The translations under genes were made by a program, and so were the position numbers. Below, in pieces: positions 3,031 through 13,193 of a stretch of 64,000 nucleotides of DNA. The stretch covers positions 71,382 to 135,381 of the forward strand of contig CALEUG010000015.1 of NCBI GenBank assembly GCA_937920515.1, given 5' to 3'. This stretch comes from an uncultured bacterium. Lineage in GTDB: Bacteria > Acidobacteriota > Aminicenantia > Aminicenantales > Saccharicenantaceae. Under the pieces are notes generated by a model, which worked only from the letters and a program-made list of their open reading frames with translations, had not been told where the DNA came from and searched no databases. Within the stretch, counting starts at the first letter, position 1. Each line of letters starts with the position of its first letter.

Positions 3031-3504
3031 CGATTTAGTATTTTAAGCCAAAAACTGATTGGCAGGCAAATTATTATTTCTCTCCTGAATCACCGGTAAT
3101 AATTCGATTTGCCGATATAATAATCTTCTAACGATCCGGATTTATGGTTCTAATTATACAGCTGCAGATAACGTTGCATGTCCTCTTTTTAAGAAGTTTT
3201 TCTTATTATTTGGCAAAGTATTGCCTCATAGACTTTCTTGATTTTTTTATTTTGCTTTAATTATCCGATTCCTTCGGCAAGGGTCATTGTTTCAATTATA
3301 GGGAAAAACGCTGGGCTAGAGGTAGTAAAATCTTATATCGTTCTGCCATTTATTTTATATTATTAAAAATGCATGAGATTCATACAGATTTTGAGCGAAT
3401 CTGATGCCAGATATTATGGGGAGTACCTCTCAACAATCATTGAGGTCATTGGCGCTCAAAAACCAATCATGCATTAAGAATTATACGCGCATTTGCTATG
3501 GATC

Positions 3505-5444: not shown

Positions 5445-5751
5445 GAAATTCTGGTCCGCTTGACCTTTTTAGTATGGTAGGGCAGGGAAAGGAAACCCAT
5501 AGAAATGGCTTTTTGTAATTCTAGAAGGGATATAACAACGCTAAAGAGACTGCGCGGATTGGTTTGCAAATTCAACTTAGGTGAAGATTTATGTCATGCT
5601 ACCCAAAAATGATTAATAAAGCCAAAAGCGGTCCGCATAAAGTTCTCTTCAACGGGGGATTTCCTTCTATTCCCCGGTACGGATTTTATTTTTTTTAGGC
5701 ATGATAATTTAGTAGAATTCAACCTTATGAAATTAGTATAAGGGAGTGAAA

Positions 5752-7140
5752 ATGAGTAGCCTCTATTTCCGGGAAAATATTCAAAGCCGGTTAAGGTTTT
5801 CTGCACCAAGCGGCCTGAGGGGCCGTTGGTTCGGGGCCAAGACCAAACCGGCTGTGATTTTATTTCTTATGTTTCTTTTGCTTTCCAGCCCACTTTTGCA
5901 GAGCCTGACCTTGAAGGCGATAGCCGGCGAATTGCCGAAGGCAACGGGTCCTGAAGTGATAGCCATTACCGGGGCCCGGATACTGACCGCCGCCGGTCAG
6001 AATTATGACCGGGGAACGATACTCATCAAGGACGGAAAAATTGTGGATATCGGCGAGAACATCAGAATTCCCGCTGAAGTTAGGGTCATAGATGCTTCAG
6101 GCTGCCTGGTTACGCCCGGCCTGATTGACGCCCACTCTCACCTGGGGCTCGGGCCGAGTGGCGGCGTAACCGAGGACAACGAAATGACCGACCCGGTGAC
6201 GCCCCAGCTCCGGATTATTGACTCCATCCACCCCGAGGGACTGGGACCCGACCGGAACCAGTTTCTGAACGCCGTGGCTGAAGGGGTCACCGCGGCCCTG
6301 ATTCATCCCGGCTCAGGCAACGTCATCGGCGGGCAGTCGGCGGTGTTGAAGCTTCGCGGGAAAACGGTTGACGAGATGTGCCTGCTGTTCCCGGCCGCAA
6401 TGAAGATGGCCCTCGGCCGCAAAGGGGCCTACGCCCAGAAGGGCCAGATGCCCATGACCAAGATGGGAACCGCTTATCTGGTGCGCCAGGCCATGCTGGA
6501 GGCCGCCGACTATAAAAAGTCGCTTGAAAATTATGAGAAGGAAAAGAAGAAGAACCCGGCAGCCGGTCCGCCGCCCCGCGACCTCAAGAGGGAAGCGATG
6601 CTTCTGGTCCTTGACCGGAAAATTCCGGTTCATATCCACGTCGGCCCGGCCGATGACATCATGACTGCGGTCCGCCTGGCCAGGGAATTCGGCTTCAAGC
6701 AGCTTTCACTGGCTCATGCCGAGGAGGCTTACAGGGTAGCCGATGAACTGGCCCGCAACAGGGTGACCGTGGTGGTCGGGCCGCGGATGATAACCTACGA
6801 CGACCAGAATCGGCCGGTCAACTTAGCTGATTATCTCTACCGCCATGGCGTGGAGGTCTGCATCATGACTGATGCCGATGTGGTCCAGCAGCCTTTCCTG
6901 CGAGCCCAGGCCGCAATTGCGGTCAAGTACGGGCTGGACCCGGAAATGGCCCTCAAGGCCATTACCATCAACCCGGCCAGGCTGGTCGGACTGGAAAGCC
7001 GGCTCGGCAGCCTGGAGAAAGGCAAGGATGCCGACCTGGTGGTCTGGAGCGGAGACCTGTTCGATGTCCGGCAGCAGGCCCTGCGGGTTTTTATAGACGG
7101 CAGGGAAGTCTTCCGGAGTCCGCAGCTTTCAGGAAATTAG
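5752..7140 (+). CDS. Amidohydrolase-family metal-dependent hydrolase (COG1228-like) with signal peptide/TM anchor
   Basis: Start taken at the ATG at 5752, after AAGGGAG. Carries a hydrophobic N-terminus, the metal-binding GLIDAHSHLGL signature and a C-terminal GKDADLVVW motif. Confidence 0.8.
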   Translation: MSSLYFRENIQSRLRFSAPSGLRGRWFGAKTKPAVILFLMFLLLSSPLLQSLTLKAIAGELPKATGPEVIAITGARILTAAGQNYDRGTILIKDGKIVDIGENIRIPAEVRVIDASGCLVTPGLIDAHSHLGLGPSGGVTEDNEMTDPVTPQLRIIDSIHPEGLGPDRNQFLNAVAEGVTAALIHPGSGNVIGGQSAVLKLRGKTVDEMCLLFPAAMKMALGRKGAYAQKGQMPMTKMGTAYLVRQAMLEAADYKKSLENYEKEKKKNPAAGPPPRDLKREAMLLVLDRKIPVHIHVGPADDIMTAVRLAREFGFKQLSLAHAEEAYRVADELARNRVTVVVGPRMITYDDQNRPVNLADYLYRHGVEVCIMTDADVVQQPFLRAQAAIAVKYGLDPEMALKAITINPARLVGLESRLGSLEKGKDADLVVWSGDLFDVRQQALRVFIDGREVFRSPQLSGN

Positions 7141-7425
7141 GGACGGAAAGATGCGCCAGCAAAGTCGACATGTCAGTGAAGCGCTATTTCGCTGGAGGGC
7201 GCGGTGTTCTGGTTAAGGAGAGGAAAGCGGGAAAGCGAGAACTCGTCGGGCTTAAAGTCAGCGGACCCGGTCATGGGGTCAGCTATTGATGGAGCGAGGT
7301 TCAACCTGTTAAATTTATCCAGGCGTCAGTCGAGAGGCGAAATGAGAGTAATAAAAGTCAGCGCGATAAAAAGGCGAGAGAGATATAAAGGGAGAAAATT
7401 GCATTTGGGGACAGGAGAACGAGTC

Positions 7426-8772
7426 ATGGAACAAAATAAAATGAGCGGCGGGAAAAATTTTTCAGGAATTCTCGGGACAAGAGTGGCGGCGGTCCTGGGA
7501 GCAGTGATAATTTGCGGCTTTTGGTTTATGAATACAGCCGGAAGGGCTCTGGCTATGGCCGGAGCGGAAAGGCAGGACGAGAAAGCTGCCGCCCGCATCG
7601 TGGTGATTAAAGCGGGGAAGGTTGTGACCATGGCCGGCCCGTTCCTGGAGAACGGTCTTGTCTTAATCGAGAACGGGAAGATTAAAGCGGTTGGCAGGGA
7701 TATTAAGATTCCGGAGGGAGCCGTGGTCATCGAAGAGCCGGAAGGCTGGGTGCTACCCGGCCTGGTGGATGCTCATTCTTCGCTGGGGCTGGTCGATGAA
7801 ACCGGCCGCAGCGAGAATGAAGAGCTTTCCGACCCGAACGTGGCCCAGCTGAGCGTTGTCGACGGCCTGAATCCGTTTGATAAAAGGATTGCCCAGGCCC
7901 GGGCCGCGGGAATCACGGCAGCCCTGGTAACGCCCGGCCGCCGGTCGGTCATAGGCGGGCAGATGGCTGTGGTCAGGCTCCGCGGCCAGACCGCCGACCA
8001 GATGGTCCTGCTGTCGCCGGCCGGGCTGAAGTTTTCAATCGGCGAAGGGCCGAAGCAGGCTTTCGGCGAAAAGGGAAGGCTACCTTCGACCAGGATGGGC
8101 AACGTCTATGTCATCCGCCAGGCACTGCTGGAAGCCAGGGAATATGCCGGGAAGTGGTCTGCTTATGAAAAGCAGCTGGCTGAGGCTAAAAAAGCCAGAA
8201 AAGACCCGGCTGATGTTCAGGCACCAAAGAGGGATTTGAGACTGGAAGCCCTGGCCCGGGTGGTCAAAGGCGAATTAACGGCCTTTATAGAATGTTACCG
8301 GATGGATGATATCGGCGCGGCCTTAAGGCTGGTTGACGAATTCGGCTTAAAGGCGGTTCTGGTGGGGTGCGCAGAGGGCTATCTCCTGGCCGGAGAAATT
8401 GCCAGGAGGAAAATACCGGTAATAGTCGGTCCTTTCGGCATCGGGCCCAAGAGGACTGAAACCGAACGGGTTGAAATCAGTAACGCGGCCAGGCTGCACG
8501 GGGCAGGAGTTAAGGTTGTGCTGCAAAGCGAAGTGCAGTACGGACTGGGAACCCTTGAAGAACTCCCGCTGATAGCAGCCCTGGCGGTCAGGGGAGGGTT
8601 GCCCGAGGAAGAAGCCTTAAAAGCCATTACCATCAACGCCGCTGAGGTGATGGGAGTGGCGCGAAGAATCGGCAGCCTGGAACCGGGGAAAGACGCCGAC
8701 CTGGTGATATTCAGCGGCCATCCTTTTGATTATCGCAGCCGGGTTAAAAGGGTTCTTATAGCGGGTGAATAA
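7426..8772 (+). CDS. Amidohydrolase-family metal-dependent hydrolase, paralog of the upstream gene, N-terminal TM anchor
   Basis: Start at the ATG at 7426, after GGAGAA. Carries GLVDAHSSLGL and GKDADLVIFSG, is co-linear in sequence with the 5752..7140 product, and has a hydrophobic N-terminus (VAAVLGAVIICGFWF). Confidence 0.8.
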   Translation: MEQNKMSGGKNFSGILGTRVAAVLGAVIICGFWFMNTAGRALAMAGAERQDEKAAARIVVIKAGKVVTMAGPFLENGLVLIENGKIKAVGRDIKIPEGAVVIEEPEGWVLPGLVDAHSSLGLVDETGRSENEELSDPNVAQLSVVDGLNPFDKRIAQARAAGITAALVTPGRRSVIGGQMAVVRLRGQTADQMVLLSPAGLKFSIGEGPKQAFGEKGRLPSTRMGNVYVIRQALLEAREYAGKWSAYEKQLAEAKKARKDPADVQAPKRDLRLEALARVVKGELTAFIECYRMDDIGAALRLVDEFGLKAVLVGCAEGYLLAGEIARRKIPVIVGPFGIGPKRTETERVEISNAARLHGAGVKVVLQSEVQYGLGTLEELPLIAALAVRGGLPEEEALKAITINAAEVMGVARRIGSLEPGKDADLVIFSGHPFDYRSRVKRVLIAGE

Positions 8773-8773
8773 A

Positions 8774-9325
8774 AAACGGGGGACACAATACTCATTCCCC
8801 AATTTTCAGGAATTGACTTTTGTAATTTATTGAGGCAGGTGCTTATTCACCAGGACAAAAGGAATCTGAAATGGATATTGCCGCCTTGTAATTCTCTCTT
8901 TTCAGCCGGTTCCTTCTCATTGTTAATATCAGGTTTCAGGGAAAATAAAGAAAATAAAAAGGCTCATCAGACATTTTTGCGGGTAAAAACAGGATTTTTT
9001 AAGGCACCGGGTGAGGCCTGAAGCTAAAACAAACAGAAAAGAACCCGGCTGGTCAATTATACGATTGATAAAGCAATTCAGAAGAGCCGGGCTGGATTGC
9101 CTCCGAGAAGCGTTCAGCGCCGGCAGTTTGAACTGGACTGTGAGAATAACAATTATCCAGGTTTGCCCATTAAAATCCTGTAAGCCCCGACAAAAATTTA
9201 CTCTGTGGCACAAGTTTACGTTTCCAGTTCAGCCGGGGCAGAAACTTGTTCAGGTGGAATGGAAATCGAAAAATATGACATTTTTTGATAAAAAAATTGG
9301 GGAATGAGTATTGTGTCCCCCGTTT
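8774..9325. repeat. Perfect 33-bp inverted repeats (8774-8806 / 9293-9325) flanking a ~486-bp AT-rich spacer; MITE-like or long-stem structured element
   Basis: Arm 1 is aaacgggggacacaatactcattccccaatttt; arm 2 (aaaattggggaatgagtattgtgtcccccgttt) is its exact reverse complement. The interior is AT-rich and only weak short ORFs overlap it. The element sits between the amidohydrolase stop and the SAM riboswitch. Confidence 0.6.
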
Positions 9326-9363
9326 CTATGTTCTATAATTGGGGTGGCGCTGGCGTTCTCATC

Positions 9364-9480
9364 CTCTCATCCAGAGAGGCAGAGGGTTAACGCGCCCGAA
9401 GAAGCCCGGCAACCTGCCCCCGGTGGGGCAAGGTGCCAAAAGCGTTGAGTCCTGGCTCCGGTCGGGACGAAAGATGAGAG
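9364..9480 (+). promoter_or_regulatory. SAM-I (S-box) riboswitch aptamer
   Basis: CTCTCATCcAGAGAGGCAGAGGG...GCCCGAAGAAGCCCGGCAACC...AAGGTGCCAAAAGCG...GAAAGATGAGAG matches the S-box consensus: the P1 stem CTCTCATC/GATGAGAG, the kink-turn GA, and the CCCGGCAACC and GGUGCCAA boxes. It lies 190 nt upstream of the MAT start codon. The downstream CUCCUCUC could pair with the 3' strand of P1, suggesting translational control, as there is no U-tract. Confidence 0.85.
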
Positions 9481-9669
9481 GAGTGGGGCGAAAGCGAGCA
9501 TCGCCACCAGGTCCCGCTCCTCTCGAGCAGAAGAGAGGCGCCTCGCCAGAGACAGCGGAGCGGAGACCGCGGTGGGAAGGCTGATCGTAAAGCCGGAATC
9601 ATATTACCTGCCCGAAAACTCCCGCCTGGTATCCGTCCCTGTCAATTCATGGTCTGACTGGAGGTAAGA

Positions 9670-10869
9670 ATGTCTGGATACTATTTTGAGGTCCGCGAGG
9701 GACGGGATTTTCTGGCCGAAGAGATGCCCGTGGAAATCGTGGAGCGCAAGGGCAAGGGGCATCCGGATTCGCTGTGCGACGGCGCGGCCGAAGAACTTTC
9801 GGTGGCTCTGTCTGAAATCTACCGGCAGAAGACAGGTAGAATTCTGCATCATAACGTGGACAAGGCGGTTCTGGTCGGCGGAAGTTCCAGCGCCGGGTTC
9901 GGTGGCGGAAAGGTGATTGAGCCGGCCCTGCTCTACATTGTCGGGCGGGCCACCTGCGAATACAACGGCAAAAGAATAATAGACGACGAGTCTATGAAAT
10001 ACCTTGAAACCAGGATTGCCGGCTGGATGATGGGGCAGGTGCCCCATCTGAGACAGGAACATTTCCAGGTAAAGCTCTTAATCAGGCAGGGCAGCGAGGA
10101 TTTAACCGCAATTTTCGCTGATGACGAAAAAGCGCCGCGGGCTAACGACACTTCCCTGGCCGTTGGCTACTCCCCCCTCAGCCAGCTGGAAACCCTGGTG
10201 CTGGAAACCGAGAAATTCTTGAACAGCCCGGAGGGCAAGCGCAAGTTCCCGGCCCTGGGCGAGGATATAAAGGTCATGGGTGTCCGCAAGGGCCAGTCCA
10301 TAAATCTAACCGTGGCCGCAGCCTTTGTGGCCTCGCTGGTCAAGGACAGGCCGGCTTACGACCTGATGAAAAAGGAAATAGCCGATTTTTTGCGGGCTGA
10401 ATTTGTCCGGCGTTATACATCCCGGCCGGTTGAGGTAATAATAAATAATGCCGATACTCCTGATTCGCAGTATCTAACCGTTACCGGCACCAGCGCCGAG
10501 GCCGGCGACGACGGCCAGGTGGGCCGGGGCAACCGGGCCAACGGGCTGATCACCCCCTACCGGCCGATGAGCCTGGAAGCCGTGGCCGGAAAGAACCCGG
10601 TCAGCCACGTCGGAAAGATTTACAGCATCATGAGCCAGCTGATTGCCGATAGAATAGTTCAGGCCATGCCAGAAGCCAGACAGGTCTATGTCTATATGGT
10701 CAGCCAGATAAACGAACCGATCGACGAGCCGCAGGCCCTCAACGTTGAGCTGTGGGGTCTGGAGGCGGACAGGGTCAGGGCCGAGGTCCGGAAAATTGCC
10801 GACGAAGTGCTGGGAAGCTGGCGTGAAATTCGCGATGGCTTCATGACCCACCGCTGGCCCATCTATTAA
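9670..10869 (+). CDS. Archaeal-type S-adenosylmethionine synthetase (methionine adenosyltransferase, PF01941 type)
   Basis: [53 protein letters not shown] and [51 protein letters not shown] are near-identical to the archaeal MAT signature blocks. A GGAGGT SD precedes the start. Confidence 0.9.
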
Positions 10870-13193
10870 ATAAAGAGGGATTTGAGGGCTTCCACGCCGG
10901 CCAGGCCGCTGTTTACCAGGTAACACCTTACCAGGTCCAGCAGGCGGCTGAAAAACATCCGCTGCATGGCCAGTTTGTCCTCGTTCACCACCAGAAGGTG
11001 CGGGTTAAAAAACGGCTGGGTCCTGGCCGAAAGCGACCTGACCGCGCCCGAAGGCTCCCCGCTTTCCAGGATTCTTAGGGCCTCTTCCTTGCCGAGCTCC
11101 ACCACCGCCGGCGAGACCCGGTCGTTTCGCAGAATCACCAGGCTCTTGAGGTGAGTTCTCCTGGTATAGCCCTGTGGTCCGGCCAGCCAGTTAGGGTCGA
11201 GCATGGCCCGGGCTTCCCCCGAGGCCCGGAAGCAATAGGGCGCGCCCTTGTCCAGCCGGCATTCATCCTGAATCGGGCAGGTGGGGTCGGTGCAGTCCTC
11301 GCGCCTGGTAACCACATTCTCGCACTTGCTGTGGTCAAAAAGCCTGGCCAGCTTATCGTGAAGTTCAACGGTGCTGGTCGGGATGTAGAATTTTCTCTCG
11401 ACGGCGTCGGCCACTGCCCGGTTGCCCGAAAAGCGAACGAATACGATCTCGTTGCTCTGGGCCTGGACTTTCGGCAGCCTGAGCAGGTCAAAAAACAGCT
11501 CGGTCTTTTTCGTCCCGGGTTGCCCCACTAAGAACAGACCGTTTCCGTCCAGCCCGACGGCCATGCCCCGCACTGCATTTATGCCCAGGTGCTCCGAGGA
11601 ATCAAGAACCATGCCCAGGGCCAGTTTCCTCAAAGGCCCGTAATTGTCGGTGTTGACCAGGATGCCCGTCCGGGTCTCCGGGTGGTAATAAGCCCGCGGT
11701 TCTCTGCCCGGCACGTTGTCCACCGCGTAAATCACGGCGTGCGGTTCGAGCCCTGCTTCAATCTGGCCCGGGAACCAGTTTTCCACCCAGAAATCGTAAA
11801 GATGGCCGACGTTGGTCCTGAGCTGGACGATGGTTCCGTTGATGTTGGCGTTCCACTCGTAGTAGTTGTCGTAACCCAGGTGGGCTTCCATCTCGGCCAC
11901 CAGGGCGTCTCTCAGCTTGCCCTCGGCCACCACTTCCACCGGCACCGATTTTTTGACCTTCGTCACGTAATTTTGCAGATAGATTTTCTTAACCTTTTTG
12001 GCCGTCTTAAGCCGGCTCATGGCCTCGGCTATCCGGTCCATTCCCTTTTCCAGGTTTTCCATGGAGGTGGCGTAGGAAATCCGGATGTAATTGTCAGCCC
12101 CGAAAGCGTCTCCGGGAACGATGGCCACCCGGGCTTCCCGCAGCAGGTAATAGGCCAGCCCGTAGGAATTCCTGATCTGAATGCCTCCGGCCTCTTTGCC
12201 GTAGTAGGAACTCACGTTTGGGAACAGGTAAAAAGCGCCCTGGGGCTTGAAGCAGGAAATTCCCGGAATTTGCTGCAGCCTCATCAGCACGTAGTTCCGC
12301 CTTCTCTGGAACTCGGCGGCCATGCGGTTAACTTCATACTGCGGCCCGGCCAGGGCTTCGACGCTGGCTTTCTGCGATATGGAGCAGGCGTTGGAAGTGG
12401 TGTGGCTCTGGATCTTGCTCATGGCGCTGATGATCTCGGCCGGCCCGGCCGCATAGCCTATTCTCCAGCCGGTCATGGAGTAGCTCTTGGAAACGCCGTT
12501 GACAATGATGGTCTTCTTTTTCAGGTCTTCGCCCAGGGAGGCAAAGCTCACAAACTGAAACCCGTCGTAGACCAGGCGGCTGTAGATCTCGTCGGCAATG
12601 ATGTAAATATCTTCTTTGCGGAGGACCTCGGCCAGGGCCAGAAGCTGCTCCCTGGTGTATGTGGCCCCGGTCGGGTTGCTGGGATTGTTCAGAACCAGAG
12701 CCCGGGTCGACGGGGAGATTGCGGCCTTCAGCTGCTCGGGAGTGAGCAAGAAGCCGTCCTCCTCCCGCGTGTCCACTATAACCGGCTTGCCCTTGGCCAG
12801 GTTCACGCACTCGGGATAGGTTACCCAGTATGGGGCCGGGATGATGACCTCGTCGCCTTCGTTGACGATGGCCTGAACCAGGTGGTAAAGGGAGCTCTTG
12901 GCCCCGCTGGAGACCAGGACTTCGTTGGGCTTGTAGTCCAGCCCGTAATCTTCCTTGAGCCTTTTACAGACCGCTTTTCTCAGCTCCGGGATACCGTCGT
13001 TTTCGGTGTACTTGGTGAAATTCTGCTCAATGGCTTTGACCGCCGCCGCCTTGACGTTTTCCGGAGTCGGGAAATCGGGTTCGCCCACGCTTAAATCAAT
13101 AACATCGATGCCCTCGGCCTTCATGGACCTGGCCTTGGCCGAAATCTTTAAGGTGGGAGAAGCTCCTATTTTGATTACTCTTTCTGAAACCAT
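10866..13193 (-). CDS. Fusion protein: class-I PLP aspartate/aromatic aminotransferase (aa 1-~395) plus a ~380-aa C-terminal domain with an HprK/PSRP-like P-loop and a Cys cluster
   Basis: The N-terminal half has SKSYSMTGWRIGY (Lys-PLP region) and the typical AspC layout. The C-terminal half contains RGMAVGLDGNGLFLVGQPGTKKTELFFDLL, which parallels the HprK core ...GVGVLITGDSGxGKSExxLEL, with the second Gly replaced by Lys. It also carries CENVVTRREDCTDPTCPIQDECRLDKGAPYC. The 3' end overlaps the convergent MAT gene by 4 nt. Confidence 0.75.
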   Translation of the reverse strand: MVSERVIKIGASPTLKISAKARSMKAEGIDVIDLSVGEPDFPTPENVKAAAVKAIEQNFTKYTENDGIPELRKAVCKRLKEDYGLDYKPNEVLVSSGAKSSLYHLVQAIVNEGDEVIIPAPYWVTYPECVNLAKGKPVIVDTREEDGFLLTPEQLKAAISPSTRALVLNNPSNPTGATYTREQLLALAEVLRKEDIYIIADEIYSRLVYDGFQFVSFASLGEDLKKKTIIVNGVSKSYSMTGWRIGYAAGPAEIISAMSKIQSHTTSNACSISQKASVEALAGPQYEVNRMAAEFQRRRNYVLMRLQQIPGISCFKPQGAFYLFPNVSSYYGKEAGGIQIRNSYGLAYYLLREARVAIVPGDAFGADNYIRISYATSMENLEKGMDRIAEAMSRLKTAKKVKKIYLQNYVTKVKKSVPVEVVAEGKLRDALVAEMEAHLGYDNYYEWNANINGTIVQLRTNVGHLYDFWVENWFPGQIEAGLEPHAVIYAVDNVPGREPRAYYHPETRTGILVNTDNYGPLRKLALGMVLDSSEHLGINAVRGMAVGLDGNGLFLVGQPGTKKTELFFDLLRLPKVQAQSNEIVFVRFSGNRAVADAVERKFYIPTSTVELHDKLARLFDHSKCENVVTRREDCTDPTCPIQDECRLDKGAPYCFRASGEARAMLDPNWLAGPQGYTRRTHLKSLVILRNDRVSPAVVELGKEEALRILESGEPSGAVRSLSARTQPFFNPHLLVVNEDKLAMQRMFFSRLLDLVRCYLVNSGLAGVEALKSLFI

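Follow-up and report, generated by a model that had tools for sequence, protein, structure and literature searches.

Inverted REP-like repeats upstream of a SAM riboswitch: a probable RAYT-like transposase system in Aminicenantia

In the 64,000-nucleotide (nt) stretch of contig CALEUG010000015.1 analyzed here (the window), which comes from an uncultured bacterium of the Aminicenantia, two perfect 33-nt inverted repeats enclose an AT-rich segment between an amidohydrolase gene and an S-adenosylmethionine (SAM) riboswitch. The locus raises the question of what such a conspicuous pair represents: the ends of one mobile element, the stem of a structured RNA, or something else. A preliminary description, made from the sequence alone, had named a non-autonomous element resembling a miniature inverted-repeat transposable element (MITE) and a structured non-coding RNA as candidates. 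Repetitive extragenic palindromes (REPs), REP doublets forming hairpins (REPINs) and REP-associated tyrosine transposases (RAYTs) have been described in other bacteria (PMC3116915, PMC3337134, PMC5581495). We consider it probable that the two arms are copies of a REP-like repeat, that the repeat is part of a RAYT-like system with a Y1 (HUH) transposase found widely in Aminicenantia, and that the DNA between the arms is not cargo.

The geometry reported earlier was borne out. In a repeat search, the arms (Table 1) are complementary at 33 of 33 positions and lie 486 nt apart. The left arm starts one base after the TAA stop codon (8770-8772) of the amidohydrolase open reading frame (ORF) 7204-8772, and 38 nt separate the end of the right arm from the start of the SAM-I riboswitch. 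With up to three mismatches allowed, the 33-mer matches only the two arm sites in the window and nothing in 100 dinucleotide-preserving shuffles; a motif profile search of the window likewise found the two arms and no further copy. As had also been observed, there is no target-site duplication, in that no direct repeat flanks the arms of the pair.

A dispersed repeat family at gene ends

The repeat is dispersed far beyond this locus. We scanned one genome per GTDB species with the exact pattern of the 22-nt core, GGGGACACAATACTCATTCCCC, and found it in 67 stretches, where we estimate about 0.1 chance matches for a 22-mer in roughly 1.2e12 positions. Nearly all carriers are Candidatus Saccharicenans, other Aminicenantes, or metagenome-assembled genomes (MAGs) labelled Acidobacteria or, probably wrongly, Eubacteriales; the outlying matches are one in Multivoradales, which are also Acidobacteriota, and one in an Elusimicrobia MAG. 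Fourteen assemblies have more than one core locus (two to eight each) and five more have a single locus. The core has no match in viral contigs, and on this ground a phage attachment site or phage origin was rejected. A profile of the motif identified 126 copies in the fetched loci. The multi-copy occurrence of the 33-bp arm, which the preliminary description had proposed to check, is thus clear.

In an alignment of 73 copies, the conserved stretch begins four bases ahead of the core and runs on for about seven bases past its end (AAA[C/T][G/C]-core-AATTTT), with random sequence outside. The conserved span is therefore 33 nt, which is the length of the window arms, and the inverted repeat is perfect because both arms are consensus copies of a dispersed motif, not because of any property specific to the pair. 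Each unit consists of an A-rich head (AAACG), a nearly invariant core starting with GGGGACACAATAC, and a T-rich tail. Possible pairing within a unit is confined to GGGGA/TCCCC plus the A/T ends. Between variants, the outer stem co-varies (AAATT..AATTT; AAAATCGG..CCGATTTT), and some variants are perfect hairpins. One of these, at about 3389-3403 of locus L028, reads GGGGACAC-AAGAGT-GTGTCCCC-TTTTT and forms a perfect 8-9-bp hairpin followed by a T-run (-10.5 kcal/mol, z -4.8), so some family members look like canonical intrinsic terminators.

Several simpler identities of the motif were considered and rejected. A terminator scanner calls neither window arm an intrinsic terminator, and each would have a 5-bp stem, a 12-nt loop and AA between stem and T-run. 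A simple hairpin is at odds with the weak fold and with the lack of compensatory change within the family. Readings as a sigma-54, extracytoplasmic-function or Bacteroidetes-type promoter, or of the reverse strand as a start codon with Shine-Dalgarno sequence, were dropped as poor fits from sequence.

The copies have a characteristic position relative to genes: they are predominantly intergenic, and their heads point toward a gene. Of 86 strong copies, 44 follow a long co-directional ORF whose stop codon ends 3-10 nt ahead of the core (3-7 nt for 40 of them), with the same picture for non-overlapping gene calls; the left arm, whose stop-to-core distance is 7 nt, lies within the family-wide 3-7-nt pattern. 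In stop-codon copies, the A-run of the motif overlaps or directly follows TAA, and a TAA is found at most 9 nt upstream of 67 of 111 copies, as against 7% of random 9-mers. A minority of copies are in the reverse orientation and precede a gene start, at distances between a few and about 80 nt; the right arm in the window is placed in a similar way.

Most copies are alone, beside unrelated DNA. Neighboring copies separated by less than 800 nt form 27 '+ then -' pairs, i.e., with heads outward, one '- then +' pair and four pairs in the same orientation. Spacers of 21-67 nt lie between convergent genes, with each arm abutting the stop codon of its own gene; the longer spacers (130-750 nt) are AT-rich. 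Because the spacers of the short doublets are unrelated to each other, these doublets are not copies of one element. At locus L047 we considered that the copies might be insertion sequence (IS) terminal repeats enclosing a transposase, but only ordinary genes lie between them. Two loci contain two or three occurrences of a unit of about 280 nt with repeats at its ends (L049 285-615 and 2395-2720; L064 1325-1645 and 2705-3215), in which a block, CGGTAAT.CAAGCTGGCAACGGAATAAAATT.GCCC, is strongly conserved. This unit may be a true small mobile unit or a duplicated upstream region of paralogous operons.

A Y1 transposase bracketed by the repeat

A candidate for the enzyme behind the repeat is found in related genomes. 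In locus L069, a 219-residue ORF (5548-6207, minus strand) lies inside a '+ ... -' pair: a single copy is found at the 3' end of the ORF, and upstream of it there are two inverted copies in tandem. The protein is a Y1_Tnp transposase (PF01797, 45.5 bits, cutoff 23), and its best and sole NCBIfam match is NF047646, REP-associated tyrosine transposase (E 4.5e-15). All 20 homologues compared have the two histidines of the HUH motif (H60 and H62) and the catalytic tyrosine (Y119), at positions that correspond to the HMH and YIYINPV motifs of the E. coli TnpA-REP structure 4ER8. That structure is also the best PDB match of the family profile (E 1.2e-6), ahead of the IS200/IS605 TnpA of ISDra2 (2e-3). 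The protein carries a C-terminal extension of about 80 residues. Homologues with 56-84% identity are abundant and, where named, are called transposase or REP-associated tyrosine transposase and belong to Aminicenantes. Just upstream of the transposase gene in L069, between repeat copies, there is also a separate 45-nt inverted repeat (6356-6400 and 6465-6508).

The bracketing by the repeat is recurrent and specific. In five further loci (L076-L080), a motif copy in plus orientation lies upstream of the transposase gene and one in minus orientation lies over its 3' end, in genome-specific variants that share GGGGACACAATAC. The neighborhood of the gene (RlmN, GH42 and a tRNA-U5-methyltransferase) is the same in L069 and these five loci, which points to vertical inheritance. 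Exact inverted repeats of 11-33 nt, nearly all of them motif variants, surround the transposase gene in at least 60 of 80 metagenome loci. As a control, only 3 of 243 genes in the motif-selected loci are bracketed likewise, and one of these three is the transposase itself. Moreover, the repeat and the transposase diverge together: as protein identity falls from 71% to 47%, the repeat variant shifts from GGGGACACAATACC... to GGGGACACATCACTTAATT and then to GGTGACAGACAACT....

Bracketing of the RAYT gene by REPs is what defines REP/RAYT systems (PMC3116915, PMC5581495), and the window pair has the same heads-out polarity as the transposase-bracketing pairs of related genomes. The arms are thus likely to be REP- or terminal-inverted-repeat (TIR)-type repeats of a RAYT-like system whose candidate enzyme is seen in related Aminicenantes genomes.

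Under this explanation, a Y1 transposase would have placed the copies by a single-strand mechanism like that of IS200/IS605, next to short A/T-rich targets such as TAA and on their 3' side. Enzymes of the IS200/IS605 type are Y1 transposases that insert DNA in single-stranded form on the 3' side of a short target, which is not duplicated (PMC6006769). Insertion 3' of a TAA-like target would account for the lack of a target-site duplication, the constant distance from the stop codon and the co-orientation with the upstream gene. In a GC-rich genome, TAA-like targets would be concentrated at stop codons and in spacers. The copies in this genome are probably old and largely immobile. Those of Saccharicenans may be relics, because they are few, mostly solo and at orthologous sites, and because no transposase was found in their fetched DNA.

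It is important to consider the observations that weigh against a RAYT-like origin. Neither the 64-kb window nor the Saccharicenans loci that were fetched yielded a transposase homologue, and none of the 80 metagenome loci has the exact window-type head AAACG around the transposase, the closest being L090 with TAATTCGGGGACACAATACTCATTTCCGA. The NF047646 score of the L069 protein, 55.8 bits, is below the model cutoff of 80. The unit is also a poor palindrome, with DNA folds of -3.9 and -3.3 kcal/mol (z -1.7 and -1.6). Within the family, changes in the 3' half, such as those of TCCCC in degenerate copies, are not compensated, and the 5' 17 nt do not vary, so recognition seems to be sequence-specific and not structural. 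Described REP superfamilies have a GTAG/CTAC or CGTC/GACG tag (PMC3733652), which is absent from AAACGGGGGACACAATACTCATTCCCCAATTTT. Copy number is low, with two copies in the window and a few to eight exact cores per genome, and replication of the doublets as REPIN units is not seen, given their unrelated spacers. Finally, many copies occupy orthologous sites with a 100% identical core, which could equally mean selection for a host function.

This last observation leads to a different explanation, in which the motif is a host cis-element at gene boundaries (a 3'-end element or terminator, an insulator, or the binding site of a conserved factor) that is maintained by selection, and its link to the transposase is secondary. 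The core is unchanged at orthologous sites where the genes are only about 78% identical, conservation is much stronger over the 5' 17 nt than elsewhere in the motif, and the distance to the stop codon and the orientation relative to the upstream gene are fixed. The A-run and T-run flanks resemble those of a bidirectional terminator, some variants being perfect hairpins followed by a T-run, and the right arm lies over the -35 position of a conserved promoter. However, because copies were found with an exact-match search, the exact conservation of the core is partly an ascertainment effect. Orthologous copies that were not selected in this way decay or vanish (the left arms of L059 and L071, the right arm of L016, and both arms of L072 and L073). 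A single unit folds no better than shuffled sequences, the terminator scan did not call it, and the bracketing of, and co-divergence with, the transposase are specific. Nor can the motif be a general gene-end signal, since there are just two copies for the 64 kb of genes in the window. We therefore regard a host element with a secondary transposase link as rather improbable.

An intermediate reading, which we think unlikely, would keep both the enzyme and a host function. The repeat would have been domesticated as a signal at gene boundaries, and Aminicenantia would have retained it, along with a single-copy Y1 enzyme, over a very long time. At TAA stop codons, it would set mRNA 3' ends or modulate translation termination. 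The heads-out pair, as a 33-bp RNA duplex or a DNA cruciform, would insulate the SAM-riboswitch promoter from the upstream operon, and a transposase-derived protein or another host factor would recognize the conserved 17-nt head.

The interior and the history of the pair

The segment between the arms had been noted as AT-rich compared with its neighbors and as carrying only weak short ORFs. Its guanine-plus-cytosine (GC) content of 0.36-0.47 is indeed below the 0.53-0.60 or so of the flanking genes, but this is nothing special. At 0.41 overall, the interior resembles the other intergenic gaps of the window (0.33-0.45), and because these are equally AT-rich, its composition is normal and no sign of foreign DNA. 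The three ORFs are short and not conserved: they have stop codons in the close relatives L016 and L042, and substitutions are spread evenly over the three codon positions. The broken frames, the absent codon-position bias and the lack of a credible Pfam match (the sole match in the interior is a sub-threshold chance similarity to SOR, E 0.044, 13.1 bits against a cutoff of 25) rule out a protein-coding interior.

The idea of a structured non-coding RNA was not supported. An Rfam search with E values up to 10 returned the SAM riboswitch and no family in the interior, which is not conserved between species. As to a very long hairpin, the third candidate of the preliminary description, the whole unit has a folding z-score of -9.1 relative to shuffles, but this value comes from the 33-bp terminal stem; once the arms are removed, the score is just -1.9, which is marginal, and we rejected a structured interior.

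The orthologous site in relatives allows the age of the pair to be judged. Locus L016 (93% identical to the window) and L042 (90%) have both arms, the right arm of L016 with one mismatch, and interiors of 484-486 nt that are 95-96% identical to that of the window. L059 (about 78%) has both arms, of which the left is degenerate, and an interior of 267 nt that is alignable only at its ends. In L070 (about 77%), both arms share an ACATAT variant and enclose about 420 nt. L071 (about 72-77%) has the spacer and the right arm only, and L072 and L073 (about 71-78%) have an AT-rich spacer of 310-360 nt but no arms. The order of the two amidohydrolases, riboswitch, metK and aminotransferase is kept in L070-L073. 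The two arms thus keep their place in species with flanking genes only 71-79% identical to those of the window. The interior differs in length and sequence: that of the window is not alignable with those of L070-L073, and spacers of different species do not align. In the fetched loci, including six other arm-containing loci of the closest genome, the interior has no match beyond the syntenic locus of close relatives. By these alignments, the pair is old, syntenic and stable, and the 486-nt interior is ordinary, fast-evolving, non-coding intergenic DNA and probably not cargo.

More turnover is seen at the neighboring junction of metK and the aminotransferase gene. In the window, the convergent stop codons of these genes overlap and there is no spacer (Table 1), whereas about 200-630 nt of spacer separate them in every relative, even in L016 with its 93% identity. 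The spacer lies between family-A copies in L059 and in L070, between copies of a distinct variant, AAAATCGGGACACCCTAGATTTTTCCGATTTT, in L071 and L072, and between degenerate arms in L016; that of L073 has no recognizable arms. What the window lacks here matches the repeat-to-repeat unit to within 1-3 nt. No consistent target-site duplication of TA or TTAA was found at the window pair or on comparing the filled junction sites of L059 and L070 with the empty site of the window. The comparison indicates that repeat-bounded spacers are gained, lost and replaced over time, and this turnover fits a transposase-linked origin. The AAAATCGGGACACCCTAGATTTTTCCGATTTT variant, present at both spacer ends (L071 5223-5850 and L072 5217-5510), has a better outer stem, AAAATCGG/CCGATTTT, and the L072 spacer also contains short tandem GAAATTCG-like repeats.

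With these data, the proposal of a MITE-like element can be weighed. MITEs such as the Correia elements of Neisseria have terminal inverted repeats, lie in intergenic regions near gene ends, and may contribute to promoters through a repeat end. Applied to this locus, the proposal says that the whole 552-bp unit was inserted once between the amidohydrolase gene and the riboswitch, with the arms as TIRs and the interior as cargo. The arms do belong to a multi-copy, non-autonomous repeat family associated with a transposase, they are perfectly inverted, and close pairs are almost always heads-out. The junction spacer absent from the window ends within 1-3 nt of the repeat ends in relatives, paired arms are often of one variant (the L059 downstream pair, the L070 upstream pair, and variant B in L071 and L072), and the unit of about 280 nt in L049 and L064 recurs with its arms. 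However, the 552-bp unit itself is not repeated: no second copy of the interior exists in the fetched loci, even among the six arm-containing loci of the closest genome. Unlike in MITEs, there is no target-site duplication, and the arms are mostly solo or in short doublets with unrelated spacers, each arm at the stop codon of its own gene. L072 and L073 retain an AT-rich spacer without arms, and the composition of the interior is ordinary. The preliminary description had itself held that a single-copy element conserved in syntenic position would speak against mobility. Because the interior is both single-copy and syntenic, mobility of the 552-bp composite is unsupported, while the arms themselves are clearly multi-copy. 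There is little chance, in our view, that the composite is a MITE-like element.

A related alternative is that the pair is the remnant of a repeat-RAYT-repeat unit in which the gene has decayed beyond recognition. The polarity would be as expected, and 486 nt is of comparable order to the 750 nt or so between transposase-bracketing copies. However, searches with tblastn and with a profile against six-frame translations found no transposase remnant in the window interior or in the orthologous and analogous interiors; a fragment in the L070 interior (E 3.7) is not significant. The GC content of the interior, 0.41, contrasts with 0.52-0.59 in transposase genes, and the transposase of related genomes resides in the other conserved neighborhood described above. 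A decayed transposase gene is thus highly improbable.

Relation to known systems and features of the locus

The probable RAYT-like system shares many properties with the 'REPtrons' of E. coli (TnpA-REP/REP) and Pseudomonas fluorescens (PMC3116915, PMC5581495, PMC3479197). In both cases, a dispersed extragenic repeat of about 33 nt lies mostly downstream of genes, inverted head-to-head pairs prevail, there is no target-site duplication, and repeat and transposase co-diverge. Also in common is a Y1 HUH transposase, apparently single-copy and syntenic, that lies within inverted copies of its repeat. REP termini often supply stop codons, and head-to-head dimers predominate (Di Nocera et al. 2013, PMC3733652). 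In contrast to REPtrons, the repeat described here lacks the GTAG tag and is a very weak palindrome with a 12-nt conserved loop, copies number units to tens instead of hundreds, and conservation of the core reaches beyond a single species to a clade at class level. In addition, doublets have no common spacers, and the transposase, with its C-terminal extension, falls below the NCBIfam RAYT cutoff.

Since the GTAG tag is absent, the system also fits the 'TIRtron' variant (PMC3733652). 'TIRtrons' (or 'TIRYT') are RAYT-like tyrosine transposase genes flanked by non-GTAG inverted repeats, in moderately abundant families, and are reported from, among others, the acidobacterium K. versatilis (PMC3733652). 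The system here likewise has a Y1 transposase within GTAG-less inverted repeats of about 25-33 nt, moderate abundance and a host in the phylum Acidobacteriota, a likeness at the level of the published description. It differs in its solo copies at stop codons and in forming a family across many genera. As in a REPIN (PMC3116915, PMC3337134), two inverted REP-type units are able to pair, here over 33 bp. However, REPINs have a short spacer, about 70-110 nt in P. fluorescens, and replicate as one unit, whereas the spacer of the window pair is 486 nt long and unrelated to those of other pairs, and the unit is single-copy.

Our search for literature on repeats of Aminicenantes or Saccharicenans found nothing. 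Whether of REP/RAYT or TIRtron type, the system represents a known kind of repeat in a little-studied lineage and not a newly inserted mobile element. The conspicuous inverted repeat can be explained without a new element, annotation of the 486-nt interior as an RNA gene or transposon is thereby avoided, and a REP/RAYT-type system is documented in Aminicenantia, an uncultured lineage of Acidobacteriota. Its unusual traits are a repeat with hardly any palindromic character and no tag, a core common to several genera, a striking placement at TAA stop codons, and clear co-divergence of repeat and transposase over many metagenome loci. It also adds a data point for the idea of a very long vertical persistence of REP-type repeats and their transposases (PMC5581495; bioRxiv 10.1101/2021.07.10.451892). 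In practical terms, the repeat is usable as a lineage marker and breaks short-read assemblies. The short-read contig L002 (ERR9287621_227706), which is 100% identical to the window, begins at window position 9296, inside the right arm, and this suggests that assemblers break at the repeat.

The features of the locus are collected in Table 1; the preliminary description was correct in placing the arms between the amidohydrolase stop codon and the SAM riboswitch.

Table 1. Coordinates and supporting data for features of the window
Feature	Position	Strand	Remarks
Left REP/TIR-type repeat unit (probable)	8774-8806	+	head AAACG, core GGGGACACAATACTCATTCCCC, tail AATTTT; equals consensus of 73 aligned copies; nhmmer 48 bits
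AT-rich non-coding intergenic spacer between units	8807-9292	.	486 nt
Right REP/TIR-type repeat unit (probable)	9293-9325	-	exact reverse complement of left unit; head toward SAM-riboswitch/metK promoter
Putative sigma-70-type promoter of SAM riboswitch-metK unit	9311-9339	+	TTGTGT 9311-9316, 17-nt spacer, TATAAT 9334-9339
SAM-I riboswitch aptamer (context, not repeat)	9364-9480	+	Rfam RF00162, 58.9 bits (gathering 44.4), E 4.5e-11
Archaeal-type S-adenosylmethionine (AdoMet) synthetase (metK) after riboswitch	9670-10869		PF01941, E 5.8e-137
Overlapping convergent stop codons TTAA of metK and aminotransferase	10866-10869	.	no spacer in window; relatives carry one

The predicted promoter of the riboswitch-metK unit has its -35-like hexamer, TTGTGT, inside the right repeat. 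TATAAT and its register are kept in L016, L042, L059, L070 and L071, and the repeat-less L072 and L073 have TTGTTG and TATAAT separated by 17 nt in the same register. A consensus scanner flagged another site instead (TTGATA-18-TATTGT, 9285-9314).

If the arms are REP-like repeats as proposed, they may also have acquired local effects. The right copy would have contributed the -35-like hexamer to the metK promoter, and the left copy might act secondarily as a 3'-end element of the amidohydrolase mRNA. In E. coli, REPs at most 15 nt from a stop codon can reportedly lower expression of the upstream gene through ribosome stalling, a result attributed to Liang, Rudd and Deutscher in 2015; the left copy lies less than 15 nt from the amidohydrolase stop codon. 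In a read-through transcript, the arms would form a 33-bp duplex separating the two transcription units, a plausible substrate of RNase III.

Some further observations concern the surrounding genes. Between the two amidohydrolase genes, window positions 7163-7411 do not align with L016 despite an identity of about 93% on both sides. ORF 7204-8772 has a long N-terminal part that is probably untranslated, and L070 has an 87-residue ORF in that position. The aminotransferase ORF (10866-13193, minus strand) encodes 775 residues, of which Pfam covers only residues 30-388; the C-terminal 380 or so have no family match, and a length of 774 residues is kept in L070-L073. Finally, a bacterial SAM-I riboswitch here precedes an archaeal-type AdoMet synthetase (PF01941) and not bacterial MetK (9364-10869). 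Homologues of this synthetase are found in Aminicenantes and in Armatimonadota/Fervidibacteria with 53-66% identity, and the other named ones, at about 50%, are mainly from Asgard archaea.

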